From contig JBPCMS010000078.1 of assembly GCA_051002015.1 (NCBI GenBank), forward strand, positions 1,564 to 65,563: DNA of 64,000 bases, given 5' to 3'. The notes under the pieces were generated by a model that did not search any database, had not been told where the DNA came from, and saw nothing but the letters and a program-made list of their open reading frames with translations. A program made the position numbers and the translations under genes. Source of the stretch: Acidimicrobiia bacterium (GTDB lineage: Bacteria; Actinomycetota; Acidimicrobiia; Spongiisociales; UBA5794). Below are positions 1 through 49,852 of this stretch, piece by piece; the stretch's first letter is position 1; each line of letters starts with the position of its first letter.

Positions 1-597
1 CTGAGACGCCAGACCGGCGGTTCGGGCATGTTCGGGCACGTGGTCATCGACCTCGAGCCGACCGAGTCCGGATCGGGGTTCACCTTCGTCGACGCCGTCA
101 AGGGGGGCAACGTGCCCCGCGAGTTCATCCCGGCGGTGGAGAAGGGGATGCGCGAGGCGCTCGACGGCGGGGTGCTCGCCGGCTACCCGCTGGTCGACAT
201 CAGGGCCACGCTCGTCGACGGGTCCAGCCACAGCGTCGACTCCAACGAGATGGCGTTCCGGATCGCCGGCTCGATGGCGCTCCAAGCGGCGGCACGGGCG
301 GCGGGGGTCAAGCTGCTCGAGCCGATCATGGAGGTCGAGGTGGTGACCCCCGACGAGTACATGGGCGACGTCATCGGCGACCTGTCGGCACGACGGGGCA
401 AGATCGTGTCGATGGACACCCGGGGCAACGTCCGGGTGGTCAAGGCACTCACCCCGCTCGCCGAGATGTTCGGCTACGCCACCGACGTCCGGTCCCGCAC
501 CCAGGGCCGGGCCACCTACACCATGCAGTTCCACTCCTACCAGGAGGTGCCATCCAGCACCGCCCAGGAGATCGTGGCCAAGTCGCGGGGCGAGTAG
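1..597 (+). CDS. fusA: elongation factor G, C-terminal part (5' end lies outside the window)
   Basis: Frame 1 is open from base 1. The translation ...[19 protein letters not shown]...[30 protein letters not shown]...[25 protein letters not shown] is typical of EF-G domains IV-V. The ATG at 28 is internal. Confidence 0.95.
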
Positions 598-861
598 AGA
601 ATCGCCGCCGGGGAGAAATCGGCCCGACTTGCCCGATGCCGGGGGCGGCGTCTACACTTCGCCGGCCCGCAGACCCTCGTCTGCGCGCCCGACGAATCTT
701 CACCCGGTCGTCCGGTGCTTCCGCACGACCCCGACCAGACCCGTGATGTACCCATTGCGGTACCGCTCGCCCGGTGGTCAGCCGACGCTCCTTTCCCGGG
801 ACGTTCGCTGTCGCCGCTCGGCGTCGTACCTCGGATGGGTCCAGAGAGACAGGAACCCGTC

Positions 862-1173
862 GTGGCGAACGAGCCCCGGATCCGAATCCGCCTCAAGGCC
901 TACGACCACTCGGTGGTCGACGAATCGGCGCGCAAGATCGCCGAGACCGTGGTCCGCACCCAGGCCAGGATCCGTGGGCCGCTGCCGCTGCCGACCAAGA
1001 TCCACCGCTACACGGTCATCCGCGGCCCGCACATCGACAAGACGAGCCGAGAGCACTTCGAGATGCGGATCCACAAGCGTCTCATCGACATCCTCGACCC
1101 GACCCCGAAGACGGTCGACTCATTGATGCGGCTCGATCTGCCCGCCGGGGTCGAGGTGGAGATCAAGACATGA
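862..1173 (+). CDS. rpsJ: 30S ribosomal protein S10
   Basis: [11 protein letters not shown]...[33 protein letters not shown] at 862 gives the canonical length of about 103 aa and follows GAGAGACAGGAA. An in-frame ATG at 835 is the alternative start. Confidence 0.93.
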
Positions 1174-1808
1174 AGGCCATCCTCGGCGAGAAGTTGGGCA
1201 TGACCCAGGTGTTCGACGATCAGGCCCGGGTGGTCCCGGTGACGGTCATCAAGGCGGGCCCCGTCCACATCACCCAGATCAAGAACGAGAAGCGCGACGG
1301 CTACTCGGCGATCCAGATCGCCTTCAAGGAGCTGCGCGCCAAGCAGGTCAACCGGCCCCAGGCGGGCCACTTCTCCCGGGCCAACGTCGTCCCCAGCAAG
1401 CACATCGTCGAGGTCAGGGTCGACGACGTCTCCGGCTACAAGATCGGCCAGAGGATCGGGGTCGCCGACCTCTTCTCGGCGGGCATGACGGCAGACGTCA
1501 CCGGCGTGTCGAGGGGCAAGGGCTTCGCCGGGGTGATGAAGCGCCACAACTTCAAGGGCCAGGGCGCATCGCACGGCGCCCACAAGGTGCACCGGGCTCC
1601 CGGCTCGCTGGGAGCATGCGCCACCCCCGCCAGGGTGTTCAAGGGCAAGCGGATGCCGGGCCGCATGGGCAACGAGACCACGACGGTGCTCAACCTCGAG
1701 GTCGTCCAGGTGGACGCCGAGCACGACCTGCTGATGGTCAAGGGCGCCGTGCCCGGGCCCAAGGGGGCGGTCCTGGTGATCCGCGAGGCGGTGAAGTCAC
1801 ATGCCTGA
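1170..1808 (+). CDS. rplC: 50S ribosomal protein L3
   Basis: [17 protein letters not shown]...[25 protein letters not shown] overlap with the rpsJ stop. Confidence 0.97.
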
Positions 1809-2514
1809 CAAGACGGCGCTCACCGCCGAGCTGTGGAGCGCCGACGGCACCCGCACCGGTGAGGTCGAACTCTCGGCGGAGATCTTCGGGATCGAGCCCA
1901 ACATGGCGGTGATGCACCAGGTGGTGACGGCCCAGCTCGCCGCCGCCAGGGCCGGCACCCACTCCACCAAGACCCGGGGCGAGGTCCGCGGCGGTGGCAG
2001 AAAGCCGTGGCGGCAGAAGGGTCTGGGCCGTGCCCGTCATGGCTCGATCCGGTCACCGCAGTGGGTGGGCGGAGGGGTCGCCCACGGTCCCAGGCCGCGT
2101 GACTACTCGCAGCGCACCCCCAAGAAGATGCGGCGCCTCGCCCTGCGCAGCGCCCTCTCGGCCCGCGCCGCCGACGGCCAGATCAAGGTGGTGGAGTCGT
2201 TCGACGTGTGGGAGAAGCCCCGCACCAAGAACGCCGTCTCCCTGCTGGAGGCGATGGGGATCACCGGCAAGGTGCTCCTGATCGCCGAGGACCACGAGCG
2301 GGTGGCGATCAAGTCGTTCCGCAACCTGGCGGCGGTCATCGCCTCGAACCTTGGCCAGGCCAACACCTACGACGTGCTGTGGGCAGACACCATCGTGATG
2401 AGCCGGGGCACCCTGGAGCTCGGCCAGTCGGCCCCGAGGGGCACAGCCGAGCATGCCGAGTCGGTGCGGGCGACCACGACCCCCGGCGTCGCCGGTAACG
2501 GAGGGGCGGCATGA
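1801..2514 (+). CDS. rplD: 50S ribosomal protein L4
   Basis: [42 protein letters not shown]. Overlaps the rplC stop. Confidence 0.96.
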
Positions 2515-2798
2515 AGAACCCCCGCGACATCATCTTCGAGCCGGTCGTGTCCGAGAAGTCATATGACCTCATCGAGGCCTCCAACATCTACACCTTCGAG
2601 GTCGACCGGCGCACCAACAAGACCGAGATCCGCCAGGCGGTCGAGAAGATCTTCGGGGTCAAGGTGGTCGGGGTGAACACCATCAACCGCAAGGGCAAGC
2701 TGAAGCGGACGGGCTTCAAGGTGGGGAAGCGCTCGGACACCAAACGCGCCCTGGTCAAGCTCGCCGCCGGCGACTCCATCGACATCTTCGAGGTGTGA
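2511..2798 (+). CDS. rplW: 50S ribosomal protein L23
   Basis: [12 protein letters not shown]...[30 protein letters not shown] overlap with rplD. Confidence 0.96.
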
Positions 2799-2801
2799 CC
2801 C

Positions 2802-3635
2802 ATGGCCGTGAGAAAGCTCAAGCCGACCTCGCCCGGCCGCCGGTTCCAGACCGTCTCCGATTTCGAGACGGTCACCACCGACAAGCCCGAGAAGTCGCTC
2901 ATCGACAAGCAGAAGCGGTCGTCGGGTCGCAACACCTACGGACGCATCACCTCGCGCCACCGCGGCGGCGGTCACAAGAAGCGCTACCGGGTCATCGATT
3001 TCCGTCGCAACAAGGACGGGGTGCCGGCCAAGGTCGCCACCGTCGAGTACGACCCCAACCGCAACGCCCGCATCGCCCTGTTGCACTACCTCGACGGGGA
3101 GAAGCGCTACATCATCGCCCCGGTGGGTGTGACCGTCGGCGACATGCTCGAGTCGGGCTCGGGCGCCGACATCCGGCCGGGTAACGCCCTCCCGCTGCGC
3201 AACATCCCCACCGGCACCGTGGTCCACAACGTGGAGCTGCGTCCCGGTGGTGGGGCCAAGATGGGTCGCGCCGCCGGGACCGCCATCCAGCTGATGTCGA
3301 AGGAAGCCAACGTCGCCCTGCTCAGGCTGCCCTCGGGGGAGATGCGCCAGGTGGCGCTGGATTGTCGGGCCACCATCGGCCAGGTCGGCAACACCGAGGC
3401 CGAGCTGATCAAGATCGGCAAGGCGGGACGGAACCGCTGGCGGGGCAAGCGCCCGCAGAGCCGGGGGGTCGCCATGAACCCGGTCGATCACCCGCTGGGC
3501 GGTGGCGAGGGGCGCACGTCGGGGGGACGCCATCCGGTCAGCCCGTGGGGCAAGCCAGAGGGCAGGACCCGCCGCAAGAACAAGGCGAGCGACAAGTACA
3601 TCGTCCGCCGCCGGACGAAGAAGGGTCGGAGGTAA
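2802..3635 (+). CDS. rplB: 50S ribosomal protein L2
   Basis: [26 protein letters not shown]...[14 protein letters not shown]. Confidence 0.98.
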
Positions 3636-3638
3636 GCC

Positions 3639-3917
3639 ATGACGAGAAGCCTCAAGAAGGGCCCCTTCGTCGACGAGCATCTGCTGCGCAAGGTCGAGAC
3701 CGCCAACGACAGGGGCGAGAAGCGGGTCATCCGCACCTGGAGCCGTCGCTCCACGATCATCCCCGAGATGGTCGGCCACACCATCGCCGTCCACGACGGG
3801 CGCAAGCATGTGCCGGTGTACGTCAGCGAGTCGATGGTCGGCCACAAGCTGGGTGAGTTCGCCCCTACCCGCACCTTCCGTGGCCACGGCGGCGAGAAGG
3901 CGGCGAGGCGGCGATGA
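3639..3917 (+). CDS. rpsS: 30S ribosomal protein S19
   Basis: [16 protein letters not shown]...[33 protein letters not shown]. Confidence 0.98.
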
Positions 3918-4255
3918 AGACCCGGGCCCAGGCCAAGTACATCAGGCAGTCGCCGTACAAGGTGCGGCGGGTGCTCGACCTCGTGCGCGGGCTCCCCGTG
4001 TCCGAGGCTCGTGAGGTGCTCACCTTCACCAACCGCCGCGCTTCGGGCCCGGTGCTCAAGGTGCTCGACTCGGCCGTTGCCAACGCCGAGCACAACCTGG
4101 CGATGGACGCCGACGAGCTGATCGTCGCCGAGGCCTACGCAGACGAGGGACCCACCCTGAAGCGGTGGCGCCCCCGGGCCCGGGGCCGGGCCACCCGCAT
4201 CCGCAAGCGCACCTGCCACATAACCGTCGTTGTCGGAGACGGAGAGGAGGACTGA
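3914..4255 (+). CDS. rplV: 50S ribosomal protein L22
   Basis: [20 protein letters not shown]...[30 protein letters not shown]. Confidence 0.97.
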
Positions 4256-5685
4256 TGGGACAGAAGATCCACCCGTACGGCCTCCGTCTCGGCATCGTGA
4301 CCGACTGGAAGTCGCGCTGGTATTCCGAGAAGGACTACGCCGCCAACGTCAACCAGGATCACCAGATCCGGGTGTACCTGCGCACCCAGCTCAAGCGTGG
4401 TGCCCTCTCCCGCATCGACATCGAGCGCATCGGCAACGCCAAGGTCCAGGTCGACGTGCACACCGCCCGGCCCGGCGTCGTGATCGGTCGCGGCGGCTCC
4501 GAGGCCGAGCGGCTCCGCACTGGGCTCGAGAAGCTGACCAAGCGGATCGTCAAGTTCAACGTGATCGAGGTCCAGAACGCCGAGCTCGACGCCACCCTGC
4601 TCGCCCGCAGCGTCGCCGACCAGCTGGAGGGCCGGGTCGCCTTCCGTCGCGCCATGAAGCGGGCGGTGGCCACCGCCCTCAAGGCCGGTGCCGAGGGCGT
4701 GCGGGTCCAGGCCGCCGGCAGGCTGGGCGGCGCCGACATGGGCCGGCGCGAGTGGTATCTCGAGGGCCGGGTCCCGCTGCACACGCTGCGGGCCGACATC
4801 GATTTCGGCCAGGCGACCGCAGCCACCAGCGTCGGCGCCATCGGCGTCCAGGTGTGGGTGTACAAGGGCGACGTGGTCCGCAGTGCTGCCGACAGCCGCG
4901 AGAAGATCGCCGCCGAGGCACGGCTGGCCGCCGGCGGTCCCTCCGAGCGTCGCCGCTCGGCCAAGTCTCGCGCCGAGGCCGCCGCCGGTGAGGGTGGGGG
5001 CCGTCGTCTCATCGAGGCCGGTGGGGGCAAGCGCGTGGTCGAGGCCGGCGGGGGCAAGCGCCCCGGTCGCCGGCTGATCGAGGCCGGTGGCGGGCGCAAG
5101 CTGACCACCAGTGACGCAGCCGCAGAGTTCGATCTGGCCCGCTCCGAGACCGACGAGGCTGCGGTCCCCGAAGTCCCCGCAGTTCCCGAGGACGCCCCCG
5201 AGGTTGTCGACGCCGCCGCCGCCTCGGAGCTCACCGATGTGGGCGGTCAGGGATCGGTCGATGCGTCCGCCGAGCCGCTCGACGAGATGGATGCCATCGC
5301 CGAGAGCCTCGAGGCCGAGACCGCCGCCGACGAGGTCCTCACCGGGACGGCCGGGGCGACCGAGATTGCCGATGTTGCCGATGTGGCCGAGACCGGACCG
5401 GCCGATGTGGCCGATGTGCCCGAGACCGGACCCGCCGAGGTTGCCGATGTGACCGATGTGGCCGAGACCGGACCGGCCGATGTGGCCGATGTGCCCGAGA
5501 CCGGACCCGCCGAGGTTGCCGATGTCGCCGATGTGGCCGATGTGTCCGAGACCGGACCGGCCGATGTGGCCGAGACCGCGGTGGGCCCGGTCGACACCGA
5601 GGGCTCCGCCGACACCGAGGAATCTCCCGACGTCGCAGACGGCGAGGACTCCGAGGACTCCGAGGACCGGGGGGAGGTGACCTGA
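4255..5685 (+). CDS. rpsC: 30S ribosomal protein S3 with an unusually long (about 250 aa) low-complexity C-terminal extension
   Basis: [23 protein letters not shown]...[31 protein letters not shown] is the S3 core. ATGA overlap with rplV. The frame stays open for 476 codons and stops 1 nt before the rplP start. Confidence 0.93.
5371..5577 (+). repeat. in-frame 75-nt tandem repeat (2 full copies plus partial copies) inside the rpsC tail
   Basis: 5380-5454 and 5455-5529 are near-identical and encode [24 protein letters not shown](T/A). Degenerate copies flank them. Confidence 0.9.
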
Positions 5686-5686
5686 C

Positions 5687-6100
5687 GTGTTGATGCCCAA
5701 GCGGACCAAGTACCGCAAGACCCACAAGGGTCGGATGACCGGCAAGGCAAAGGGCGGCACCAGGGTCACCTTCGGCGACTACGGGCTCCAGGCCCAGGAG
5801 TCGGGGTGGATCACCGCCCGCCAGATCGAGGCCGCCCGTATCGCCATGACCCGCGCCATCAAGCGTGGCGGCAAGGTTTGGATCAACATCTTCCCCGACA
5901 AGCCGATCACCGAGAAGCCGGCCGAGACCCGCATGGGCTCCGGTAAGGGCAACCCGGAGTACTGGGTGGCGGTGATCAAGCCGGGGCGGGTCATGTTCGA
6001 GATGGCGGGGGTGACCGAGGAGCTGGCCCGCGAGGCCATGCGGCTCGCCGCCCACAAGCTGCCGGTGAAGACCAAGTTCGTGGTGAGGGACGAGCTGTGA
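5687..6100 (+). CDS. rplP: 50S ribosomal protein L16
   Basis: (GTG)[17 protein letters not shown]...[23 protein letters not shown]. Confidence 0.97.
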
Positions 6101-6318
6101 GAGCGATCGAACTCCGCAACCAGACATACCGGGAGCTGACCGCCAAGCTGGACGAGGCCAAGGAGGAGCTCTTCAACCTCCGCTTCCAGATGGCAACCAA
6201 CCAGCTCGACAACACGGCGCGCCTCCGCCAGGTGCGCCGCCAGGTGGCCAAGATCAACACCGTCATGCGCGAGATGGAACTCGAGGCATGGCGCAATCAG
6301 CAGGAGGGCACGGCGTGA
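6097..6318 (+). CDS. rpmC: 50S ribosomal protein L29
   Basis: [37 protein letters not shown] overlap with rplP. Confidence 0.93.
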
Positions 6319-6575
6319 CGGACGAACGTGGACGCCGCAAGGTGCGTACCGGGGTGGTGGTATCCGACTCCCGGGACAAGACGGTGACCGTCGAGGTGCC
6401 TTCCTCGAAGCGTCACCCCAAGTACGGCAAGACGATGCCGACCCGCAAGCGCTACCACGCCCACGACGAGACCAACGATGCCCGTCTGGGTGACACGGTC
6501 CGCATCGTCGAGACCCGGCCGCTCTCCAAGAGCAAGCGGTGGCGGGTGGCGGAGATCGTGGAGCGTGCCCGATGA
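6315..6575 (+). CDS. rpsQ: 30S ribosomal protein S17
   Basis: [22 protein letters not shown]...HPKYGKT...YHAHDE...[24 protein letters not shown] overlap with the rpmC stop. The ATG at 6288 would overlap rpmC by 31 nt. Confidence 0.9.
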
Positions 6576-6940
6576 TCCAGACCGAGACCAGGCTCCGCGT
6601 CGCCGACAACAGCGGTGCCCGCGAGGTTCTCTGCATCCGGGTGCTGGGAGGCTCCCGTCGCCGCTATGCCCACGTCGGTGACGTCATCGTCGGTGCGGTC
6701 AAGGAAGCGACCCCGGGCGGCACCGTCAAGAAGGGCGAAGTGGTCAAGGCGGTCGTGGTGCGGACCCGCAAGGAGAGCCGACGTCAGGACGGCAGCTACA
6801 TCCGGTTCGACGACAACGCCTGCGTCATCATCAACGACCAGCAGCAGCCCCGCGGGACCCGCATCTTCGGCCCGGTGGGCCGCGAGCTGCGCGACAAGAA
6901 GTTCATGCGGATCGTCTCGCTCGCCCCGGAGGTGTTGTGA
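6572..6940 (+). CDS. rplN: 50S ribosomal protein L14
   Basis: [27 protein letters not shown]...[11 protein letters not shown]. Confidence 0.98.
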
Positions 6941-7245
6941 TGAAGCTCAAGGTTGGGGACACCGTGCGGGTGATCGCCGGCAAGGACAAGGGCACCGAGA
7001 GCCGGATCGCCAAGGTCATCAAGCAGCGCGGCAAGATCATCGTCGAGGGTGTGGCAACGGCCAAGCGCCACCAGCGCCCCACCGGGCAGACGATGCAGGG
7101 CGGGATCATCGACAAGGACATGCCGATCGACGCCTCCAACGTGATGATCGTGTGCCCCGACTGTGGTCCCACGAGGATCGGGGCCCGCATCGACGACGAG
7201 GGTGTCAAACACCGGGTGTGCCGCAAGTGCGGAGGTGACCTGTGA
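6940..7245 (+). CDS. rplX: 50S ribosomal protein L24 (Cys4 zinc-ribbon variant)
   Basis: [21 protein letters not shown] motif. The C-terminal CPDCG-x17-CRKCGG resembles the Thermus-type L24. A GTG at 6937 is also possible. Confidence 0.95.
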
Positions 7246-7799
7246 CCCCCCGTTTCAAGCAGCGTTACCACGACGAGATCCGGGACCAGCTCCAGGAGCA
7301 CCTCGCCCTGGCCAACGTCATGGAGGTGCCCAGACTGCTCAAGATCGTGGTCAACATGGGGCTGGGGGACGCCGCCGCCGACTCCAAGCTGGTCGACGCC
7401 GCCGTCACCGACATGCGGGCGATCACCGGCCAGCAACCGAGGATCAACCGGGCCCGCAAGTCCATCGCCAACTTCAAGTTGCGCGAGGGGATGCCGATCG
7501 GTGTCTCGGCCACGCTGCGGGGCGACCGGATGTGGGAGTTCTTCGATCGGCTGGTCACCCTGGCCATCCCCAGGATCCGGGACTTCCGCGGGCTGAGCCC
7601 GACAGGGTTCGACGGGGCGGGCAACTACAGCTTCGGGGTCACCGAGCAGCTGATCTTCCCCGAGATCGAGTATGACCAGGTTGGCAAGGTTCGGGGCATG
7701 GACATCACGTTCGTGACCACGGCGAAGAGCGACGAACAGGGCCGCGCCTTCCTCGAAGCGTTCGGTTTCCCGTTCCGGCGGCAACAGGCAGGTGTGTGA
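7242..7799 (+). CDS. rplE: 50S ribosomal protein L5
   Basis: [18 protein letters not shown]...[27 protein letters not shown]...[11 protein letters not shown]. Confidence 0.97.
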
Positions 7800-8104
7800 T
7801 GGCGAAGAAGTCGATGATCAACAAGAACGAGCGCCGCAAGATGCTGGTGGAGCGCTACGCCGCCCGCCGCGCCGAGCTGGTCGCCGTCATCAAGGATCCC
7901 GAGAAGTCCTACGAGGAGAAGCGCGAGGCGTACCAGGCGCTGGCCAAGATGCCACGTGACGCCAGCGCCACCCGCTACCGCAACCGGTGCGGGGTCACCG
8001 GTCGTCCCCGTGGCTACTTCCGTACGTTCGGGATGTCACGCGTGGCACTGCGCCAGCTCGCCCACAACGGCGAGCTGCCCGGTGTCAGGAAGGCTTCCTG
8101 GTAG
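7799..8104 (+). CDS. rpsN: 30S ribosomal protein S14, long (about 101 aa) non-zinc form
   Basis: [14 protein letters not shown]...[43 protein letters not shown]. There is no CxxC pair. Confidence 0.95.
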
Positions 8105-8500
8105 ATGTACACCGATCCCATCGCCGACATGCTCACCCGCATCCGCAACGCCAACCAGGCGCTGCATGCCGAGGTCACCATGCCCGCCTCCAAGATCAAG
8201 GAGGGCATCGCCGAGATCCTGGCCGCCGAGGGGTATGTCGACAGCTTCAAGATCCAGGAGGCCGGTGTGGGCCGCGCCCTCACCATCCGGCTGCGCTATG
8301 GCGACGACCGGGGCCGAGTCCTCAAGGGGATCAAGCGGATCTCCTCGCCCGGGCACCGGGTGTACCGGCCGGCGGCCGCCATCAGCCGGGTCCAGGGCGG
8401 TCTCGGCGTCGCCATCCTGTCGACGTCACAGGGCCTGCTCACCGACCGTGAGGCGCGGCGCCGCAACGTGGGCGGCGAAGTCGTCTGCGAGGTCTGGTGA
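8105..8500 (+). CDS. rpsH: 30S ribosomal protein S8
   Basis: [16 protein letters not shown]...[28 protein letters not shown]. Confidence 0.98.
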
Positions 8501-8503
8501 ACC

Positions 8504-9040
8504 ATGAGCCGAATCGGTAACAGCCCCATTCCGGTCCCTTCCGGGGTCGACGTCACTGTCGACGGCCGCACCGTGTCGGTGAAGGGCCCGAAGGGGGCCC
8601 TGAACCGGTGGGTCGACGGACGCATCCAGGTCTCGGTGGAAGACGGTGTGGTAACGCTGAAACGCGCCACCGACGAGCGCGCCGTGCGGTCGCTCCATGG
8701 CCTCTACCGGGCGCTGTTGGCCAACATGGTCACCGGTGTGTCCGACGGTTACCGCAAGGAACTGCAGGCGGTCGGGGTCGGCTACCGGGCCAACCTCCAG
8801 GGCCGCCGGCTCGAGCTCCAGGTGGGGTTCTCCCACCCGGTGGTGATCGAGGCGCCCGACGGCATCGACTTCGAGGTCCCCGAGCCGACCAGGATCATCG
8901 TCACCGGGATCGACAAGGAGCTGGTCGGCCAGACGGCGGCGAACATCCGGCGGGTCCGGCCCCCCGAGCCGTACAAGGGCAAGGGAATCCGGTACGTAGA
9001 CGAGCACGTGCGCCGCAAGGCCGGCAAGGCGGGTGGATGA
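8504..9040 (+). CDS. rplF: 50S ribosomal protein L6
   Basis: [17 protein letters not shown]...[22 protein letters not shown]. Confidence 0.98.
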
Positions 9041-9393
9041 TGAGAGGTTCACGGACAGACGCCAGGCGGAGACGCCACGTCCGGGTCCGCAAGGCGGTGC
9101 GGGGCACCGGGGCACGTCCCCGTCTCGCCGTCTACCGCAGCAACCGGTACATCTACGCCCAGGTGATCAACGACGAGAGCGGGATCACCCTCGCCGCCGC
9201 CTCGTCCCGGGAGAAGGGGCTGGCCGAGCGCACCCTCAACCTGGAGACGTCGGCCGAGGTCGGCAAGCTGATCGCCGCTCGAGCAACCGACGCCGGGGTG
9301 AGCACCGTTGTGTTCGACCGGGGCGGGTTCGCCTTTCACGGCCGGGTCAAGGCGCTCGCCGATGGGGCCCGCCAAGCCGGGCTCGAGTTCTGA
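9037..9393 (+). CDS. rplR: 50S ribosomal protein L18
   Basis: [38 protein letters not shown]...[32 protein letters not shown] overlap with rplF. Confidence 0.96.
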
Positions 9394-9420
9394 GAGTTCT
9401 GAGAGTTCTGAGAGTTCTGA
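9385..9420 (+). repeat. 4 x 9-nt perfect tandem repeat GAGTTCTGA at the rplR stop
   Basis: Read directly: gagttctga x4. The first TGA (9391-9393) is the rplR stop, and every copy carries an in-frame TGA. Confidence 0.95.
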
Positions 9421-9439
9421 GAGAGTTGAGGAGCACGAC

Positions 9440-10009
9440 ATGACCAGCAGGAGATCGGACTCCCGAGTCAGGGATTCGGAGTTCGAAGAGCGGGTGATCG
9501 CCATCAACCGCGTGGCCAAGGTGGTCAAGGGCGGCCGGCGGTTCTCGTTCACCGCCCTGGTCACCGTTGGCAACGGCGCCGGCAAGGTGGGCGTCGGCTA
9601 CGGGAAGGCCAAGGAGGTCCCCACCGCCATCCAGAAGGCGATCGAGATCGCCAAGAAGTCAATGGTGGACGTCCCCATGGCGGGCACCACGATCATACAC
9701 GAGGTGATCGGCGTGCACGGCGCCTCGCGCGTCATGCTCAAGCCGGCATCGCCCGGTACCGGTGTCATCGCCGGTGGCGCGGTGCGCCAGATCCTCGAGG
9801 CGGCGGGCATCCGCGATGTCCTGGCCAAATCGCTCGGCTCGCCGACCCACATCAACGTCGCCCGGGCCACGATGGACGCCATCGCCAGACAGCGGCGTCC
9901 CGAAGAGGTGGCCAGGGCCAGGGGCAAGCGTCCCGAGGAGATCTTCCCACCTGCGCTGCTCGCCGCCTACCGGTCGGCCGAGCTGATGAAGACCCAGGTG
10001 GGTGAGTGA
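9440..10009 (+). CDS. rpsE: 30S ribosomal protein S5
   Basis: [59 protein letters not shown] lies 6 nt upstream of the ATG. Confidence 0.96.
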
Positions 10010-10010
10010 G

Positions 10011-10196
10011 ATGGCAGCAACGTTGAGGATCACCCTGAAGAAGAGCGTCATCGGCGAGAAGCCGAAGACCCGCGCCACCGTGGAGAGCCTCGGGCTCCGC
10101 AAGATCCATCAGTCGGTGGACCGCCCCGACTCGCCCGACGTGCGCGGGATGATCTTCCGGGCCAAGCACCTGCTCGAGGTCGAGGAGTTGTCATGA
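10011..10196 (+). CDS. rpmD: 50S ribosomal protein L30
   Basis: MAATLRITLKKSVIGEKPKTRATVESLGLRKIHQSV. A GTG at 10002 is the alternative start. Confidence 0.92.
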   Translation: MAATLRITLKKSVIGEKPKTRATVESLGLRKIHQSVDRPDSPDVRGMIFRAKHLLEVEELS

Positions 10197-10630
10197 AGCT
10201 GCATCATCTCAAGCCGGCACCGGGCTCGAGGTCGAAGAAGATCCGGGTCGGCCGGGGGGAGAGCGGGCGGCGGGGCAAGACCGCCGGCCGCGGCACCAAG
10301 GGCCAGAAGGCCCGCGGTCAGGTCCGTCCCGGGTTCGAAGGCGGCCAGATGCCGCTGCAGCGGCGGCTGCCCAAGCTCAAGGGGTTCAAGAACCGCAACA
10401 AGGAGTACTTCGCCCTGATCAACGTCGGGCGGCTCAACGACTTCGAGGCGGGCACCGAGGTGACCCCCGAGATCCTGCGTTCGGCCGGTCTGGTCAAACA
10501 CCGGGGCAGGATCAAGGTGCTCGGCGAGGGCGAGATCGATCGCGCCGTCACCGTGCGTGCCCATGCCTTCAGCCTCGGCGCCGTCGAGAAGATCAAGGCG
10601 GCGGGTGGCTCGGCCGACGTCGTCGACTGA
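10193..10630 (+). CDS. rplO: 50S ribosomal protein L15
   Basis: MKLHHLKPAPGSRSKKIRVGRGESGRRGKTAGRGTKGQKARG. Confidence 0.97.
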   Translation: MKLHHLKPAPGSRSKKIRVGRGESGRRGKTAGRGTKGQKARGQVRPGFEGGQMPLQRRLPKLKGFKNRNKEYFALINVGRLNDFEAGTEVTPEILRSAGLVKHRGRIKVLGEGEIDRAVTVRAHAFSLGAVEKIKAAGGSADVVD

Positions 10631-10691
10631 CCGTCGACACCCACCCGACCACTAACCTCGCCGACATACCACAAGGGGCCCACCCGCTCTC

Positions 10692-11999
10692 ATGCTGTCC
10701 GTTTTCCGCAACATGTTCAGGATCCCGGATCTCCGGAACAAGATCCTGTTCACGCTCTTCATCTTCGCCATCTACCGCTTCGGCGCCGCCATCCCGACGC
10801 CCGGTGTCGATCTGGAGCGGGTGCAGCAGTTCGCCGACCAGTCGACCAACAGCGGGTTCATCGGGCTGATCAACCTGTTCTCGGGTGGCGCGCTGGAGAC
10901 GCTGTCCGTGTTCGCCCTCGGGATCATGCCGTACATCACGGCATCGATCATCATGCAGCTCCTCGCCGTGGTCATCCCACGCCTCCAGGCGCTGCGGGAG
11001 GAGGGTGACGCCGGCCAGAAGGTGATCACCCAGTGGACCCGCTACATCACGGTCGGTCTGGCTCTGATCCAGTCGACGTCGTTCACGTTCCTGTTCCACT
11101 CCGGGCAGTTCACCGGGGGCATCGACCTGATCCCCGACTACACGGTGCGCAACGTGCTGACCATCATCATCACGATGACCGCGGGTACCGCCCTCATCAT
11201 GTGGCTCGGTGAGCTGATCACCCAGCGCGGCATCGGCAACGGCATGTCGTTGATCATCTTCGTCAGCATCGTCAGCCAGCTCCCCTCCCAGCTCGGGATC
11301 CTGAGGGCCAACTCCAACACGGGCCAGTTCGTCGCCGTGCTGCTGCTGATGCTGGTGCTGACGGTGGGGATCATCTTCATCGACCAGGGCCAGCGCCGGA
11401 TACCCATCCAGTTCTCCCGGCGGGTCCGGGGTCGCAGGATGCTCGGTGGCCAGAGCACCTACATCCCGCTCAAGGTCAACATGGCGGGGGTGATCCCGGT
11501 GATCTTCGCCACCTCGATCATGTACTTCCCGGTGCTGGTGGGATCGATGCTTCCGGCCACCGGGTGGGGTCAGGCGGTGCGCAACTGGATCGACAGCAAC
11601 CTGACCTCGGCCAGCGCCGGCGGGTTGTCGCCGACCCTGCCCTACATGCTGATGCTGGGTCTGCTGGTGGTGTTCTTCAGCTACTTCTACACCGCCATCC
11701 AGTTCGACCCGGAGCGCCAGGCGGACACCATCCAGCGCCAGGGCGGGTTCATCCCCGGTATCCGGCCCGGGCGGCAGACGGTGAACTACCTGCAGCACGT
11801 GCTCAGCCGGATCACCCTTCCCGGTTCGATGTACCTGATGGTGGTCGCCATCGCCCCCTCGTTCCTGGGGTGGCTGTGGAACATCCCGGTCGGGCTGTCC
11901 GGGGTCTCGGTCCTGATCGTGGCCGGGGTCGCCCTCGAGACCATGAAGCAGGTCGAGAGCCAGCTGATGATGCGCAACTACGAGGGGTTCCTCCGCTGA
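10692..11999 (+). CDS. secY: preprotein translocase subunit SecY
   Basis: 435 aa, multi-pass. LFALGIMPYITASIIMQLL...ITQRGIGNGMSLIIF... Confidence 0.97.
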   Translation: MLSVFRNMFRIPDLRNKILFTLFIFAIYRFGAAIPTPGVDLERVQQFADQSTNSGFIGLINLFSGGALETLSVFALGIMPYITASIIMQLLAVVIPRLQALREEGDAGQKVITQWTRYITVGLALIQSTSFTFLFHSGQFTGGIDLIPDYTVRNVLTIIITMTAGTALIMWLGELITQRGIGNGMSLIIFVSIVSQLPSQLGILRANSNTGQFVAVLLLMLVLTVGIIFIDQGQRRIPIQFSRRVRGRRMLGGQSTYIPLKVNMAGVIPVIFATSIMYFPVLVGSMLPATGWGQAVRNWIDSNLTSASAGGLSPTLPYMLMLGLLVVFFSYFYTAIQFDPERQADTIQRQGGFIPGIRPGRQTVNYLQHVLSRITLPGSMYLMVVAIAPSFLGWLWNIPVGLSGVSVLIVAGVALETMKQVESQLMMRNYEGFLR

Positions 12000-12571
12000 T
12001 GGGGAGGAGGCTGCTGTTCCTCGGGCCCCCCGGTGCCGGCAAGGGCACCCAGGCGGTGATGCTGGCCCGGGCGCTCGGGGTCCCCCACCTGTCCACCGGT
12101 GACATGCTGCGCCGGGCGGTGTCGGAAGGCACCGAACTGGGCCGGCAGGCCGAGGCGATCATGACCGCCGGCGACCTGGTCCCGGATGATCTCGTGGTGG
12201 CGATGGTGGGGGAGCGGCTGGCCGAGCCGGACGCCGCCTGCGGCTACCTGCTCGACGGGTTCCCCCGCAACGTGGCCCAGGCCGAGGCGCTCCGCGCCGG
12301 GCTCGTCGACGACGGCATCGAGCTGGTCGTGCTGCTCGATGTCGACGAGGACGAGCTGGTCACCCGGTTGCTGGGCCGCGCCGCCGCGCTGGGACGCACC
12401 GACGACAACGAGGAGACGATCCGTCGTCGCCTGGCGGTTTACCGATCCGAGACTGCCCCGCTGGCGGAGCACTACCCGGGGACCGGCGTCGAGGTGGTCG
12501 CCGTCGAAGGGACCGGCACCATCGGCGAGGTGTTCGCCCGCATCGTGGGCGCCCTCGCCGCCGAGCGCTGA
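11999..12571 (+). CDS. adk: adenylate kinase
   Basis: MGRRLLFLGPPGAGKGTQAVMLA...LLDGFPRNVAQAEAL. ATG overlaps the secY TGA. Confidence 0.96.
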   Translation: MGRRLLFLGPPGAGKGTQAVMLARALGVPHLSTGDMLRRAVSEGTELGRQAEAIMTAGDLVPDDLVVAMVGERLAEPDAACGYLLDGFPRNVAQAEALRAGLVDDGIELVVLLDVDEDELVTRLLGRAAALGRTDDNEETIRRRLAVYRSETAPLAEHYPGTGVEVVAVEGTGTIGEVFARIVGALAAER

Positions 12572-12597: not shown

Positions 12598-13377
12598 ATG
12601 AGCGGCAAGGTGATGACGATGAAGACCTGGGCCGACTTCGAGAGGATGCAGGTGGCCGGGCGATGTGTCGCTGCGGTGCACGCCGCCGTCCGGGAGGCCG
12701 CCGCCCCCGGTGTCTCCACCAGCGAGCTCGACGCCATCGCCGAGGCGGTGGTCAGGGCGCACGGCTGCCGACCATCGTTCCTCGGCTACCACGGCTATCC
12801 GGCCACGATCTGCGCCTCGCCCAACGCCACCATCGTCCACGGCATCCCCGACGGCTACCGCCTGGTGGAGGGCGATGTCCTGTCCGTCGACGCCGGCGCC
12901 ATCTTCGAGGGTTGGCACGGCGACGCCGCCTTCACCATGGCCATCGGTGAGGTGCCTCGCGCCGTCGCCCGACTGATCGAGGTGACCGAGGAGGCGTTGT
13001 GGAACGGGATCGCCCAGGCGCAGGCGGGCAGGAGGCTGGGCGACATCGGTCATGCCGTCGAGCAGACCGCCTCGCCGCACGGCTACGGCGTGGTGCGGGA
13101 GTACGTCGGACACGGGATCGGTCGTTCGATGCACGAGGCGCCCGACGTCCACAACTTCGGTGACACCGGCAAGGGGCTCAAGCTGAAGACGGGGATGGCG
13201 CTGGCCATCGAGCCGATGTTCAACCTGGGCGGCGCGGAGACGTTGACCCTCGAGGACGGCTGGACCGTGGTCACCGCAGACGGCTCGATCTCCGCCCACT
13301 TCGAGCACACCGTGCTGCTCACCGAGAAGGGCTCGATGGTGTCGACCCTGCCCGAACCGGTCCTGGTCGGCGCCTGA
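12598..13377 (+). CDS. map: type I methionine aminopeptidase
   Basis: HGIPDGYRLVEGDVLSVDAGA...GHGIGRSMHEAP...AIEPMF...HFEHTVLLT (metal-ligand motifs). In-frame ATGs at codons 6 and 8 are alternative starts. Confidence 0.95.
   Translation: MSGKVMTMKTWADFERMQVAGRCVAAVHAAVREAAAPGVSTSELDAIAEAVVRAHGCRPSFLGYHGYPATICASPNATIVHGIPDGYRLVEGDVLSVDAGAIFEGWHGDAAFTMAIGEVPRAVARLIEVTEEALWNGIAQAQAGRRLGDIGHAVEQTASPHGYGVVREYVGHGIGRSMHEAPDVHNFGDTGKGLKLKTGMALAIEPMFNLGGAETLTLEDGWTVVTADGSISAHFEHTVLLTEKGSMVSTLPEPVLVGA
13129..13369 (+). repeat. direct repeat copy 1 (inside intact map); the partner is 14914-15154
   Basis: 241 nt with 4 mismatches to the second copy, at an offset of 1785 nt. Confidence 0.95.
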
Positions 13378-13528
13378 GGGGACCGCGGAACGGCGCTCAG
13401 CGTCCCACCAGCTCCCGTCGTCGAGAACCACCTGCTCCAGCGGGTGGGTGGCCGGACCCTGGAGGACCGCCCCGTCGAGTCCGTAGCCCGAGCCGTGACA
13501 TGACAACCCGCCTCGGCACCGGCCGCCG

Positions 13529-13912
13529 TCATGGCAGGGAGAACCCGCCCACACGCACCACGAGGTCGCCGTCCGCCGGGTCGTCCTCGAAGACGAACAC
13601 CAGGTCATCCGAGGCGCCCCCGGCGAGGAAGTCGATCGTCTGGTCTGCGGTCACCGTCTCGTCTCCGATGGTCAGCTCGGCGACGACCTGGACATCGGCG
13701 GCGGTGGTGTCACCGTCATTCACGACCAGGACCGGGACGTGGAAGCGTGGACCCCTGGCCTCGACCTCCCCATTGACGGAGGCGTTCGGTGCCGCCGGCT
13801 CCTGGTCGCCGATGATCTGCCCGGCGATGAGCCCGACCACGCCGAGCAGCACGAGGCAAGCCACGAAGAACGTGACCCATTCGGCTCCGGTACGGGAGCG
13901 GGAAGCAGTCAT
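13529..13912 (-). CDS. small N-terminally membrane-anchored protein of unknown function (from memory, resembles the TIGR02588-type partner of TIGR02587 membrane proteins)
   Basis: MTASRSRTGAEWVTFFVACLVLLGVVGLIAGQI (one TM helix) followed by an acidic soluble domain. ATGA overlap with the upstream gene. The longer ORF-track N-terminus is rejected. Confidence 0.6.
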   Translation of the reverse strand: MTASRSRTGAEWVTFFVACLVLLGVVGLIAGQIIGDQEPAAPNASVNGEVEARGPRFHVPVLVVNDGDTTAADVQVVAELTIGDETVTADQTIDFLAGGASDDLVFVFEDDPADGDLVVRVGGFSLP

Positions 13913-14796
13913 ATCGCCAACCGTCCCGCCGCTCCCCCGATGGCCGCCGGCAACCCGAGCACCACCACCTGGCTCAGGGTCGCCGGCCATGGTCCCTCCA
14001 CGTTCTGGAAGATGACCAGCATCGACCACGACGCACCGAGCGCCACCAGGTAGGCGGCCACGGTTTCGCTCACCGGCCGTTGGAAGATGCCTCGCTGGGC
14101 GTGGCGTTGCTCTTCCTTGGCGAACCCGGCGACGAACACGATGCCATAACAGGCCAGCAGCGACAGCCCCATCAACCCCAGCAACCACGGTGGGTCGAGT
14201 GCGGACGCCAGCATCGGTACCTCGTCTGTGGGGGCGATGCTGAGCGACAGGAAGACGGCCCCGATGAGGGTGGCGCCGAGATCGGCGAGGGTGCCGTTCA
14301 TGCGCTCCGACCCCTTGGTGCCGGTATCACCGCCGCCGGCATCGTCTTCGTCGGATTCATCGCGACCACGTTGCAGGAAGTGGGCGGCTACCCCGATTCC
14401 GATGCAGAACGGGACGGACCCGTAGACGACCTGGCCAAGCCCTTCCTGCAGCGGCGTTCGACCGTTCAGCTCGCCCAGGAGGATGAGGATGACGGTGACG
14501 CTGAGGAGACCGATCGCCATCGCCTCGACGGTGTCCATCAGGGCGTCTCCCCACCGGATGTCACGGGTGGAGCGGAACCCGGACGTGCGGTTGAGGAGGA
14601 GCACGGGCACCGTGGTGAGACCGAGGACGACCAGCGTTTGACCCGGTCGGGTGCTGCTGCCCGTCGACCACACCTCCGTCGTGTAGAGCAAGGGGATGCC
14701 AAAGAGAAGGCCCCCGGACACGGCCCGGACGACATCGACCAACTCCTCCCGCCAAGGACCCCGACCGCCATCACCCTTCGACGGGCGGCGGCTCAT
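13909..14796 (-). CDS. polytopic integral membrane protein of unknown function (TIGR02587-like, tentative)
   Basis: MSRRPSKGDGG...GGLLFGIPLLYTTEVW... with 5-6 hydrophobic spans and an acidic loop (RGRDESDEDDAGGGD). The ORF-track N-terminus (to 15276) is antisense to the map fragment and is rejected. Confidence 0.65.
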   Translation of the reverse strand: MSRRPSKGDGGRGPWREELVDVVRAVSGGLLFGIPLLYTTEVWSTGSSTRPGQTLVVLGLTTVPVLLLNRTSGFRSTRDIRWGDALMDTVEAMAIGLLSVTVILILLGELNGRTPLQEGLGQVVYGSVPFCIGIGVAAHFLQRGRDESDEDDAGGGDTGTKGSERMNGTLADLGATLIGAVFLSLSIAPTDEVPMLASALDPPWLLGLMGLSLLACYGIVFVAGFAKEEQRHAQRGIFQRPVSETVAAYLVALGASWSMLVIFQNVEGPWPATLSQVVVLGLPAAIGGAAGRLAI

Positions 14797-20726: not shown

Positions 20727-21926
20727 TCATGGCAGCCCGGCGGGCAGCAGGTCCAGGAGCGCACCGCCCAGCAGGTTGCGCCAGCTCTGCCAATGGTGGC
20801 CGTCCGCCACCTCCTCGTATTGCACCGCCATCCCGGTGGCCTCGAGCACGATGCGGAAGGCCCGATTGTCGGCCACCAGCCCCTCGAAGGTCCCAACCGC
20901 CATCCACACCTGGTCGGATGGCTGTCCCGGGTTCTCGGTGAATGCCTTCATGAAGGCGATGACCGGCTCGAACAGCGGCCCACGGCGCATCGGTCCCCCG
21001 GTGGCGGTGACGAACGAGCCCGACAGCAGGATGGTCGAGGCGAAGGTTCCCGGGTGGTACCACGCCGTGGCCAGGCTGGCCACCGCCCCCAGGCTGCTGC
21101 CGCCGATGACCCGGAGTGCCGGGTCGTCGGTGGTGTGGAACCCGGTGGCGAGCCGGGGGAGCACGTCTTCCACCACGAAGTCGGCGTGGGTCTCCGAGGC
21201 GGTGTACTCCTCGCTGCGGTGGACCGGGTCGAGCAGGGCGACCACGGCGGGCCGCACCGCCCCGGCCCCGAACAGGTTGTCGAGCACCGTGGCCAGCGAG
21301 GCGTACTCCACCATGTCGCTGCCGTCGTGGAGCACCACCAGCGGGTAGGGGCCGTCATCGGGGAAGCAGGGTGGCAGGTACACCGACACCAGACGGCGGT
21401 CGCCGAAGGCGCTCTTCTCGATCTCGAATGCCTCGAGCGTCCCGGGGGCGCCGCCGTTCGGGTTCACCCAGCTCGGCTCGACGTAGCCGGGGGCGTGAGC
21501 GACCGAGTTCGACCCGAACGGGTCCGATGCGGTGCGGCGGTTGAGGGGGTCGAGGATGCGGTCGGTGCGGTCGATGCCCACCACCTCGAGCTTGTACTCG
21601 ACCCGGCTCCCGGGGGGCAGCGCGACCGTGACGTGCCACAGATCGCTGTCTTCGACTCGCTCCATCGGGGGGAACTCGGGGAACCGCGCCATGAAATGGA
21701 CGACATCCACCGACTCGGCGTCCCCGACGTAGGCAAAGGTGGTGGCGCCGTCGACGGTGTAGGGGGCTCCGGCCCTGGCGATGCGGCGCCGCAGGTAGGC
21801 GGGCGCCATGTTGCGGGCGGCGATGGCGAGCATGTCGGGAAGGGGAAGCGGGGTGAGGGCTGCCATTGCCGGCGGGAGGCTAGCGGCGCCGTTTCCCCTC
21901 GCCATCGATCCAATGCGGGCTACCAT
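20727..21926 (-). CDS. enterochelin-esterase-like (Fes/esterase family) alpha/beta hydrolase with an N-terminal beta-sandwich domain
   Basis: [15 protein letters not shown]...[17 protein letters not shown] (N-domain), [15 protein letters not shown] (GxSxG). The start is uncertain: ATGs at 21926, 21905 and 21866 are all in frame. Confidence 0.7.
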
Positions 21927-47215: not shown

Positions 47216-48814
47216 ACCAATGGTGCCGACCCTATCCCCTCGGTGAGGCGGATCAGCCCGACCAGCAGCCCGTCGACCAGGGCGATCCAGGAGGCGTCGA
47301 TGATGTTCTCGTGGACACCGACGCTGCCCCAGCATTCCTCGCCGTCGCTGTGCTCCACCAGGACCCGCACCCGCGCCGACGAGCCGTCCCGGGAGTCGAG
47401 GTCGCGCACCCGGTAGTCGGTGAGCCGAACCCGGTCGATCTCGGGGTAGCGGGTGCGCAGCCCGGCCCGCAGTGCCCGGTCCAGCGCCGACACCGGCCCG
47501 TCGCCCTCCCGGGTGGTGACGTGCCGCTCGTCGCCCACCATCAGCTTGACGGTCGCCTCCGCCTGGACCTCGTCCTGGCGGTGCTCGATGAACACCCGGT
47601 ACGACTCGAGGGTGAAGAAGTCCTGCTTCCATCCCTGGGCCTGGCGGAGCAGCAGCTCGAAGGATCCGTCTGCGGCCTCGAACTGGTAGCCGAGATGCTC
47701 GAGCTGCTTGATCCGGTCGACCACCGCCTGGGCGTCCCGTTCGGTGAGGTCGAGACCCTGGCTGCGCGCCTTGGCCAGTACGGTGGACCGTCCCGCCAGC
47801 TCGGACACCACGACCCTGGTGGCGTTGCCCACCGCGCCGGGGGAGAGATGCTCGTAGGCGTCCGCCCGTTTCGCCAGCGCAGACGCGTGCAGCCCCGCCT
47901 TGTGGGTGAAGGCCGACCCACCAACATAGGGGCGGTGGGGATCAAGCGTCAGGTTCACCAGATCGGCGACGTGATGCGACACCCTGGTCAGCTTGGCCAT
48001 GCGGTCGTCCGGGATCGTCCGGTAGCCCATCTTCAGGGTCAGGTTCGGGATCACCGAGCACAGGTCGGCGTTGCCGGTCCGCTCGCCGTAGCCGTTGAGG
48101 CACCCCTGCACCTGGTGCACGCCAACCAGGACCGCGGTGATCGAGTTGGCCACCGCCATGGCCGAGTCGTTGTGGAAGTGGCAGCCGAAGGTCGCCTCGG
48201 GGAGCCGGGCGAGCACCTCGGAAACGATGCGTCCGACCGCATGGGGGAGGAACCCGCCGTTGGTGTCGCACAGCACCAGCCGCTCGGCCCCTGCGTTGTG
48301 GGCGGCCTCGAGCACCGACACCGCGAAGCCGGGGTTGGCCCGGTACCCGTCAAAGAAGTGCTCGGCGTCGAAGAACACCCGGCGCCCCTGGGAGCGGAGA
48401 TGGGCGATGGAGCCGGCCACCATCGCCCTCGCCTCGACGGGTGTGGTGCGAAAGCGCATGCTCGACATGGGAGTCCCACGATTTGCCAACCAGGCAGATC
48501 ACCTCGGTCTCGGCGGCCAGCAGGGCGGCGAGCTGCTTGTCGTGCTCGGGGCGGATCCCGGACTTTCGGGTCGACCCGAAGGCGACCATGGTGGCGGTGC
48601 CCAGGTCGAGCTCGGTCCTGGCCCTGGTGAAGAACTCGTCGTCCTTGGGGTTGGCGCCGGGCCAGCCCCCCTCGATGTAGGCGACGCCGAGCTCGTCGAG
48701 CAGACGTGCCACCCGAAGCTTGTCTCCCGCCGTCAGCGAGATCCCCTCCTGCTGGGTGCCGTCACGGAGCGTGGTGTCATAGATCTCGACGTACGGTCGT
48801 TCCTGGTTGCTCAT
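47212..48814 (-). pseudogene. cimA: (R)-citramalate synthase (long IPMS/CimA family) interrupted by a single-base frameshift near 48451-48453
   Basis: The N-part ORF ([27 protein letters not shown]...[10 protein letters not shown]...[13 protein letters not shown]) and the C-part ORF ([18 protein letters not shown]...[10 protein letters not shown]...CHFHNDSAMAVAN...) are in different frames. Total length is 3n+1. AGAGGAA RBS. Confidence 0.8.
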
Positions 48815-48846
48815 GGTTCCTCTGGGGGTGATGGGTCGGGCCCGGT

Positions 48847-48938
48847 AAACGGAAGACCCCCCGCACGAGCGGAGGGTCGAGGGCGGCGCACACACCGATC
48901 GGTGGCGTGTGCGCCTACGGAATGATGATGTCGAGCAT
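48847..48938 (-). promoter_or_regulatory. candidate Ile-sensing attenuator: leader peptide MLDIIIP, a 12-bp hairpin, and a terminator hairpin with UUCCGUUU
   Basis: On the minus strand: ATG CTC GAC ATC ATC ATT CCG TAG (48938-48915). GGCGCACACGCC...GGTGTGTGCGCC (48915-48885). GACCCTCCGC-tcgt-GCGGGGGGTC-TTCCGTTT (48878-48847). It ends 32 nt before the cimA ATG. Confidence 0.5.
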
Positions 48939-49072
48939 GCCGAACCGGTCCGGTGCACGGGGATCCCCACGGAGCGGTTCGTCGTCGCCACCGCGCCAGT
49001 AAACCCGCCACCCGGTTGTCCGTCAAGGGACCCTATGCCTGCCCGGCGTCACCGGCGCTCCGGTGCCCGGCG

Positions 49073-49852
49073 TCACTGGGTCGCTTCGGTCGCCATCTCC
49101 CTGAGCAGCACGGCCAGACCCTGATCGCCGTGGACCTCGACCGCCACCAGCGGTGCCCGGCCCCACAACCACAGGTCGAGCATTCCGGCACTACCCGAGA
49201 TGATCGTGTCCGGATCGTGGACCTCGTCGACGACGACGGCGGCGTCGATGTCGTATGTGGTGCCGCTGTTGGGGGAGGTGCCCGTCATCCGACCCACCAG
49301 CAGGTTCCACGCCTGCTCGCCGGCCTCGATGCGGATCGTCCGGCCGCCGTCGGTGAACATGGCCCATTCGGGAATGCCGCCGATCATCACCCGCAGGATC
49401 TCGTCCACGCCGTCGAGGGCCAATGCGGGGTCGAGCGACGGGCCGAGACCGGCAGCCAGCTCGGCGTCTGCGCGGTGGATCAGCGCCTCGTGGGCCTGGC
49501 GCCGCATGACGAACCCGGCGTTCTGCTGGTCGGACCAGGTGTAACAGGGCGTGGCCGGGTCGGTTGCGGAAAGGGTGCTGACCAGGAAGGTCTTGGCCGA
49601 ATCGAGGGCGTCGACCAGGTTGTCGTCGGCGGGCCGCAATGGCTTGCGGTAGCCGTCCGGAGAGGGCAGCCGCTCGGACACGATCGTCGCCCAGAAGGTC
49701 TGGACCTCGGTGAGGTGCCACAGGAGATCCGCCACCGTCCAGCCCGGTGCGGAGGGCACGGGGCTCGAGGGCGGCACCGACCGGGCGGCATCGATGAGCC
49801 GCTCGGTCTCGCCGTCGATGTAGCCGATGTACTCGGCGGGTTGCAGTCGCAT
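49073..49852 (-). CDS. DinB-fold mycothiol-dependent maleylpyruvate-isomerase-family protein
   Basis: [10 protein letters not shown]...GWTVADLLWHLTEVQTFW...RRQAHEALIHRADAE. Confidence 0.75.
   Translation of the reverse strand: MRLQPAEYIGYIDGETERLIDAARSVPPSSPVPSAPGWTVADLLWHLTEVQTFWATIVSERLPSPDGYRKPLRPADDNLVDALDSAKTFLVSTLSATDPATPCYTWSDQQNAGFVMRRQAHEALIHRADAELAAGLGPSLDPALALDGVDEILRVMIGGIPEWAMFTDGGRTIRIEAGEQAWNLLVGRMTGTSPNSGTTYDIDAAVVVDEVHDPDTIISGSAGMLDLWLWGRAPLVAVEVHGDQGLAVLLREMATEATQ

Follow-up and report, generated by a model that had tools for sequence, protein, structure and literature searches.

The rpsC gene in the window (the whole stretch of 64,000 nucleotides that was analysed) encodes a uS3 protein of 476 amino acids, about twice the usual length, and raises the question of whether the additional residues are a genuine part of the protein and what, if anything, they do. 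The window belongs to a 2.35-Mb MAG assembled from short reads into 117 contigs, with a GC content of about 68%, whose closest public relatives are uncultured Acidimicrobiia throughout. It contains the S10/spc ribosomal operon with the gene order rplB-rpsS-rplV-rpsC-rplP-rpmC-rpsQ (read from the ORFs), in which stops and starts of adjacent genes around rpsC overlap or adjoin. rpsC occupies the operon position expected for uS3, between rplV and rplP, and its start shares bases with the rplV stop as TGATG (ATG at 4255). A first-pass annotation of this DNA had described a gene of 476 codons with a long basic-then-acidic tail, and this description holds: the gene spans 4255-5685, and a core that ends at about residue 216 is followed by a 260-residue extension. 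The gene and its parts are as follows.

4255..5685, + strand: rpsC (uS3), 476 codons plus stop, with ATG at 4255 and TGA at 5683-5685
4255..4902, + strand: canonical uS3 core, residues 1-216, KH_2 and S3_C domains (Pfam/NCBIfam matches)
4903..5154, + strand: clade-specific conserved module, residues 217-300 (~85 residues), delimited by alignment A1, dN/dS, and distribution
5002..5100, + strand: three tandem basic Gly-rich units of 9-11 residues, residues 250-282 (sequence; TRF)
5155..5682, + strand: polyanionic low-complexity tail, residues 301-476 (176 aa; sequence, AlphaFold)
5360..5578, + strand: 75-nt tandem repeat (TRF, 2.4 copies at 5360-5540 or 2.9 copies to 5578, 95% matches)
5643..5667, + strand: perfect 9-nt repeat GAGGACTCC, 2.8 copies, coding for EDS units (TRF)

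The core is that of an ordinary bacterial uS3. Pfam places KH_2 (PF07650) at residues 38-110 and Ribosomal_S3_C (PF00189) at residues 120-202, and the whole-protein family TIGR01009 (rpsC_bact; cut-off 114.5 bits) matches residues 1-209 with 262.9 bits. The core is 57-63% identical to solved mycobacterial uS3, and AlphaFold models it with pLDDT >90. Past the core, neither Pfam nor NCBIfam returned a match for the 476-aa protein. The uS3 sequences in the PDB are 202-275 aa long, and their alignments to the window uS3 end at query residue ~210-259; the extension, which is appended to the conserved core terminus, is lacking from E. coli/Thermus-type homologues. The closest parallels by protein, terminus, and phylum are the uS3 proteins of Mycobacterium (274-275 aa) and Cutibacterium acnes (269 aa), e.g., PDB 7kgb, 5o5j, and 8crx, which also have low-complexity residues after S3_C that are basic and Gly/Ala-rich at first. 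These tails are, however, short (PMC10085706, PMC6133939), at 50-65 aa, and unrelated in sequence to the module described below, whereas the extension studied here comprises 260 aa with a module and a 176-aa polyanion. A search of the full-text literature found no description of this S3 tail. Judged by sequence comparison, the rpsC product is a genuine uS3 that is extended at its C-terminus in a lineage-specific manner, and the two parts of the extension evolve differently. Among ribosomal proteins encoded in positions 1-7800, those other than uS3 and uL4 are of ordinary length; uL4 (rplD, 1801-2514, + strand, 237 aa) has a ~30-aa C-terminal tail that is Gly/Ala/Thr-rich and non-acidic.

Probable translation and strain variation of the extension

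At 70% GC, an open frame alone is weak evidence of translation, and the antisense frame across the acidic tail is likewise stop-free. Since open frames mean little at this GC, the case for translation is built on conservation and on in-frame variation. In the window, the absence of an earlier stop and the start of rplP one nucleotide past the S3 stop, both reported in the first-pass annotation, were confirmed (TGA at 5683-5685, GTG at 5687). More than 170 genomes keep the extension in frame, with the rplP start at or next to the S3 stop, in line with the earlier claim that the tail belongs to the coding sequence.

The uS3 cluster at 90% identity has four members from independent assemblies, three of which are 476 aa long and one 456 aa. 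Two independent metagenome contigs were compared with the window at the DNA level. In the one of equal length, 0.5% of the positions in the core, 0.4% of those in the module, and 2.4% of those in the tail are different. In the other, which belongs to the same species and encodes the 456-aa form, four indels (3, 9, 57, and 9 nt) fall at repeats and preserve the frame; its divergence is 1.2% in the core, 1.2% in the module, and 9.1% in the tail. The tail therefore diverges 5-8 times faster than the core between strains. The predicted length polymorphism of the repeats was in this way borne out. The 57-nt indel and a 9-nt indel map to the 75-nt repeat, which had been placed at 5380-5529 and was measured at slightly greater extent (see the list above), while one 9-nt GAGGACTCC unit is absent from the sister strain.

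Several relatives assembled from long reads or into few contigs (G003, G004, L053, L054, and L099) have frameshifts inside the S3 acidic repeats. In these assemblies, the acidic frame resumes and reaches the same ..GEEVT end before rplP; the frameshifts are therefore likely indel errors that truncate the annotated S3 in those assemblies, and not in the one analysed here. Such repeat-caused errors in long-read data may make S3-based marker analyses misleading in this group. We infer that the tail is retained in mature ribosomes.

The basic repeat module

The first part of the extension, residues 217-300, consists of a helix, a basic linker, three LIEAGGGKR units, and an amphipathic acidic helix. 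The three basic repeats had been noted at about 4990-5100; the units were found at nt 5002-5100 (residues 250-282), TRF reports a 27-nt period at 5012-5069 in the same region, and the unit consensus is [LIV][IV]EAGGGK[RK]. In a comparison of S3 lengths of the kind that the first-pass annotation had proposed, the uS3 proteins of the first 20 relatives were 350 to 484 aa long, and each had the core, the repeats, and an acidic tail. The number of (K/R)R[LI][IV]EAGGGKR repeats per protein was two or three.

To follow its distribution, an 88-position profile built from the conserved part of the extension (alignment A1) was searched against 401 Acidimicrobiia genomes. The module was present in all 109 sampled genomes of the window's order (8 families), in 59 of 65 genomes of an Acidimicrobiia family with low-GC genomes of ~1 Mb, and, as a weak match (E 7e-7), in the one genome of a further family (f17); the profile search found it in none of the 225 genomes of all other Acidimicrobiia families. 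The ~1-Mb family, which to judge from genome size and GC is probably the abundant marine Actinomarinales, has a GC content of about 36-41% and a uS3 of only 296-304 aa. This protein keeps both helices and the basic linker, has two ILEAGGGKK units, and carries ~12 acidic residues after the acidic helix. The module sequence thus outlasts a shift in GC from 70% to 36-41%, while the acidic tail is there reduced to ~12 aa.

When the S3 cores were placed in a maximum-likelihood tree, a branch with 100/100 support had every module-bearing protein, those of the ~1-Mb family among them, on one side; the tree is therefore consistent with a single origin of the module. The other Acidimicrobiia (Acidimicrobiales) have a uS3 of about 300 aa with a related but simpler tail, in which a DKIxREAAMAVGE helix is followed by a single VVSSxxRRR or RIVSSGGGKRR unit and then by an acidic helix and the terminal ETPHFRDGQD. 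The uS3 of the f17 genome has one degenerate RRLVEAHT unit. The presence of a single related unit in these proteins is the reason why the module appears to have originated by tandem duplication of a pre-existing single unit. As a sequence character, the module is a clean molecular synapomorphy of the clade. Acidimicrobiia-type S3 genes were also observed on MAG contigs labelled Saprospiraceae, Gemmatimonadales, Acidobacteria, Gammaproteobacteria, and Burkholderiales (L030, L036, L048, L051, and L078). In the S3 tree, L030, L048, and L051 nest within the module clade and L078 falls among module-lacking Acidimicrobiia, while the core of L036 had no row of its own in the tree. These contigs are probably mis-binned or come from mislabelled MAGs.

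Selection on the module was evaluated from Nei-Gojobori estimates for the window uS3 paired with 31 orthologues. For the module, dN/dS was 0.1-0.36 in most pairs and reached 0.62 in a few distant ones; for the core, it was 0.1-0.34. Synonymous differences in these pairs (pS of 0.4-0.8) are near saturation. Thus, by this measure, purifying selection on the module is about as strong as on the S3 core. Ribosomal proteins are usually taken as invariant markers; here, a whole uncultured order and the ~1-Mb family carry a conserved uS3 add-on, and a constraint equal to that of the core would imply a real role on the 30S head.

An exhaustive HMM search with the module profile through 1.84 billion representative proteins gave 44 matches, and the 12 that were inspected were all S3, S3 fragments, or chimeric contigs. 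On this sampling, the module proves exclusive to S3, and the idea that it was borrowed from another protein was rejected on the same inspected matches. By these comparisons, the conserved, S3-exclusive part of the extension is the basic LIEAGGGKR module and not the acidic tail.

AlphaFold, run with a 57-sequence alignment, predicts helices at residues 211-225, 236-243, and 285-302, the last with a pLDDT of 79-90. The Gly-rich units between them have a pLDDT of ~45 (below 50 over 247-274) and no confident structure; a beta-meander fold of the repeats, which was considered, accordingly found no support in this model. When the A1 profile was compared to all PDB sequences, the best E-value was 0.095, to unrelated proteins. 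The units resemble RGG/RG RNA-binding repeats in being short and tandem, with a Gly run and basic residues, disordered alone, and plausibly RNA-binding; they differ in having GGGK[RK] with a conserved hydrophobic pair and a Glu, and no aromatic residues or RGG triplets. A co-evolving expansion of 16S rRNA was also considered as a partner of the module. Aligned 16S rRNA of five complete genomes, three with the module and two without it, showed no indel in the head domain that followed its presence; the sequences differed only in a longer V1/h6 loop and in 1-nt changes, and this candidate was rejected.

The acidic tail and comparable tails on other proteins

The second part of the extension has a different character. 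Residues 301-476 contain 53 D+E and a single K+R, for a net charge of −52, and are rich in A/V/T/P; AlphaFold gives a pLDDT <50 for most of 311-476. The tail is thus a terminal addition of low complexity, composed of tandem repeats and predicted to be without stable structure, as expected of a lineage-specific disordered extension. Its orthologues are 44-250 aa long, with 27-36% D+E and net charges of −12 to −61. The sequence cannot be aligned between genera, while the composition is constant: it is uniformly acidic, with K/R almost absent, in all intact module-bearing orthologues examined. Codon usage is relaxed in the tail compared to the core (GC3 of 0.81 vs 0.93), and tail length did not correlate with GC content within the clade (rho 0.07). 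No Rfam match was obtained in positions 1-12000 at E <= 0.1, and no promoter-like or terminator-like consensus sites were found in 4200-6200; an RNA element, promoter, or terminator hidden inside the tail was therefore rejected.

Ribosomal proteins of Mycoplasma pneumoniae reportedly carry lineage-specific disordered extensions (a 2022 finding attributed to Xue et al.). The likeness lies in solvent-exposed ribosomal protein termini with long, low-complexity, fast-evolving tails whose length changes by in-frame tandem duplication; the difference is that in the present case an S3-exclusive, clade-defining conserved repeat module is located between the core and the disordered tail.

The first-pass annotation had treated the tail as a single charged appendage specific to S3. 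The whole genome was scanned for acidic stretches of low complexity that lie in frames whose GC3 resembles that of coding sequence, and cases were confirmed by Pfam. Comparable acidic tails were found on three other proteins, all encoded outside the window.

Contig C30, about 13107-14204, + strand: bL10 (rplJ), 365 aa vs about 170, with a ~190-aa acidic tail
Contig C12, about 20870-21725, + strand: bS16, 284 aa, with a ~180-aa acidic Ala/Asp/Glu/Thr tail
Contig C12, about 47800-49245, + strand: NusA, 461 aa, with a ~135-aa acidic tail ending DDSDDPEDG..

The bL10 tail includes eight tandem AEAEDA units, and across the whole family L10 carries tails of 30-190 aa. Across relatives with intact genes, the length of S3 correlates with that of L10 (Spearman rho 0.79, n = 13; the genomes are related and the P value is overstated), which suggests a genome-level driver of acidic tail length. 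Given the bL10, bS16, and NusA tails and this co-variation, the acidic tract therefore looks like a trait that translation and transcription proteins exposed to solvent share at the level of the genome or lineage, and not like a device of S3. The view of an S3-specific appendage is not supported for the acidic part, which is, in addition, almost dispensable in the ~1-Mb relatives.

A motif of ~45 aa, G-Y-x-I-K-G-N-A-D-S/L-M-L-Y-H-x-P-D-S..Y..T.A.V-W-F-D-S-E..A..A-G-F, was observed as an insertion in the acidic tail of one relative's partial S3. It also forms the end of a membrane-anchored protein with acidic repeats that is encoded in the present genome (contig C115, about 13795-14685, + strand); Pfam returned no match for the motif.

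Possible roles of the extension and the junction with rplP

The reading towards which we lean, with moderate confidence, is that of a translated uS3 that carries a conserved, functional RNA-binding module and a generic, drifting polyanionic tail. The module would have arisen once, in this uncultured Acidimicrobiia clade, by tandem duplication of a single degenerate unit, and would be the functional part, kept by purifying selection. It would be a flexible segment, Gly-rich and basic, that becomes ordered only on binding, most likely to RNA (either 16S rRNA of the 30S head or incoming mRNA); the contact would lie where the C-terminus of uS3 leaves the 30S head, on its solvent-facing side. That the module binds RNA is what we infer from its composition and position. 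The acidic tail would be an intrinsically disordered polyanion whose sequence and length drift by replication slippage of in-frame repeats, under a constraint on composition (about 30% D+E and almost no K/R). It would be one instance of a lineage habit of placing acidic disordered tails on solvent-exposed uS3, bL10, bS16, and NusA. If the tail is active at all, it may act as a generic negative brush for solubility or for repelling RNA or neighbouring ribosomes; it is presumably not a specific regulator of the mRNA entry channel.

A doubtful but serious competitor to this reading holds that the acidic tail is non-functional ballast, produced by slippage-prone GA/GC-rich repeats that are tolerated at exposed termini, and that only the module, if anything, is functional. 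The hypervariability of the tail in sequence and length, its polymorphism between strains, its relaxed codon usage, and its reduction to ~12 aa in streamlined genomes of ~1 Mb are all as this explanation would have it, and so are the similar tails on several unrelated proteins, whose lengths co-vary in genomes in a way that fits a genome-level mutational propensity. It accounts less readily for a composition that is uniformly acidic, with almost no K/R, in every intact module-bearing orthologue examined, for the persistence of a short acidic end even in the most reduced genomes, and for the preservation of the frame by every strain indel. Selection clearly restricts which changes are permitted, though such filtering does not amount to a positive function, and the strict acidic composition could merely reflect what the ribosome surface tolerates. 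The co-varying acidic tails provide a testable case of whether disordered polyanionic ribosome tails are selected or tolerated. We consider it extremely improbable that the real S3 ends near residue 220-280 and that faulty assembly or annotation (an overlooked stop, a frameshift, or collapsed repeats) created the whole extension. A short-read MAG, error-prone tandem repeats, the tail frameshifts in several long-read assemblies of relatives, and the long spurious open frames generated by high GC would each invite such an error, but two independent metagenome contigs and another MAG agree on the 476-aa protein, the fourth variant differs by in-frame indels only, more than 170 genomes are open in frame up to the rplP start, and the frameshifted relatives regain the acidic frame and the same ..GEEVT end.

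The first-pass annotation had also suggested that an appendage at the mRNA entry channel could affect the recruitment of mRNA or factors. In its full form, this would make the module and tail together an S3-specific regulatory appendage at mRNA entry, acting as an mRNA-mimicking plug for idle ribosomes or as a dock for RNA polymerase, NusA, or helicase-related factors. uS3 does line the mRNA entry together with uS4 and uS5 (PMC6133939, PMC10085706), the N-terminal extensions of C. acnes uS5 plug the channel (PMC10085706), and in the chlororibosome of Chlamydomonas, positive extensions of uS3c and uS4c seem to steer the mRNA (PMC13481248); in the present genome, NusA is also acidic-tailed. The Chlamydomonas chloroplast uS3c has 497 extra residues near the beak and mRNA entry, whose positive parts are proposed to stabilise or thread mRNA (PMC13481248). 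It resembles the present case as a very large lineage-specific enlargement of uS3 near mRNA entry, but it forms a folded helical platform intertwined with dedicated extra proteins, while the bacterial extension is predicted to be mostly disordered, is basic-then-acidic, and has no detectable homology to it. The tail, however, is unconserved in sequence and nearly gone in Actinomarina-like relatives that keep the module, and similar tails are borne by bL10 and bS16, which are far from the entry channel. We therefore regard a combined, S3-specific regulatory appendage as quite unlikely; an effect at the entry channel is possible for the module, and the case for the acidic part is weakened. A bolder version of the preferred reading is more speculative than that reading itself, and we hold it to be rather unlikely: the LIEAGGGKR module would be a hitherto undescribed repeat that binds RNA and, across the clade, reshapes either the mRNA entry or the solvent face of the 30S head, and the co-varying polyanionic coat of uS3, bL10, bS16, and NusA would adjust the spacing of ribosomes, the access to RNA, or the coupling of transcription to translation. 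The module offers a defined 85-residue target for structural or biochemical work.

The end of the tail also contains a probable signal for the next gene.

5673..5677, + strand: GGAGG within the final codons of rpsC, 9 nt ahead of the rplP GTG
5687..6100, + strand: rplP (uL16), GTG start one base past the S3 stop

The GGAGG at 5673-5677 is probably the Shine-Dalgarno site of rplP. Since this site lies within the last S3 codons, translation of the whole tail would be coupled to rplP initiation. In all orthologues, rplP begins directly at the S3 stop or no more than a few bases from it. The final 21 nt of the orthologous S3 genes contain Shine-Dalgarno-like 4-mers in 83% of cases, compared to 56% of other 21-nt windows in the tails, which are in general rich in such 4-mers. 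The recurring ..EGG[DE]A or ..DEEE ends of these proteins thus probably reflect the embedded Shine-Dalgarno sequence at least as much as a constraint at the protein level.
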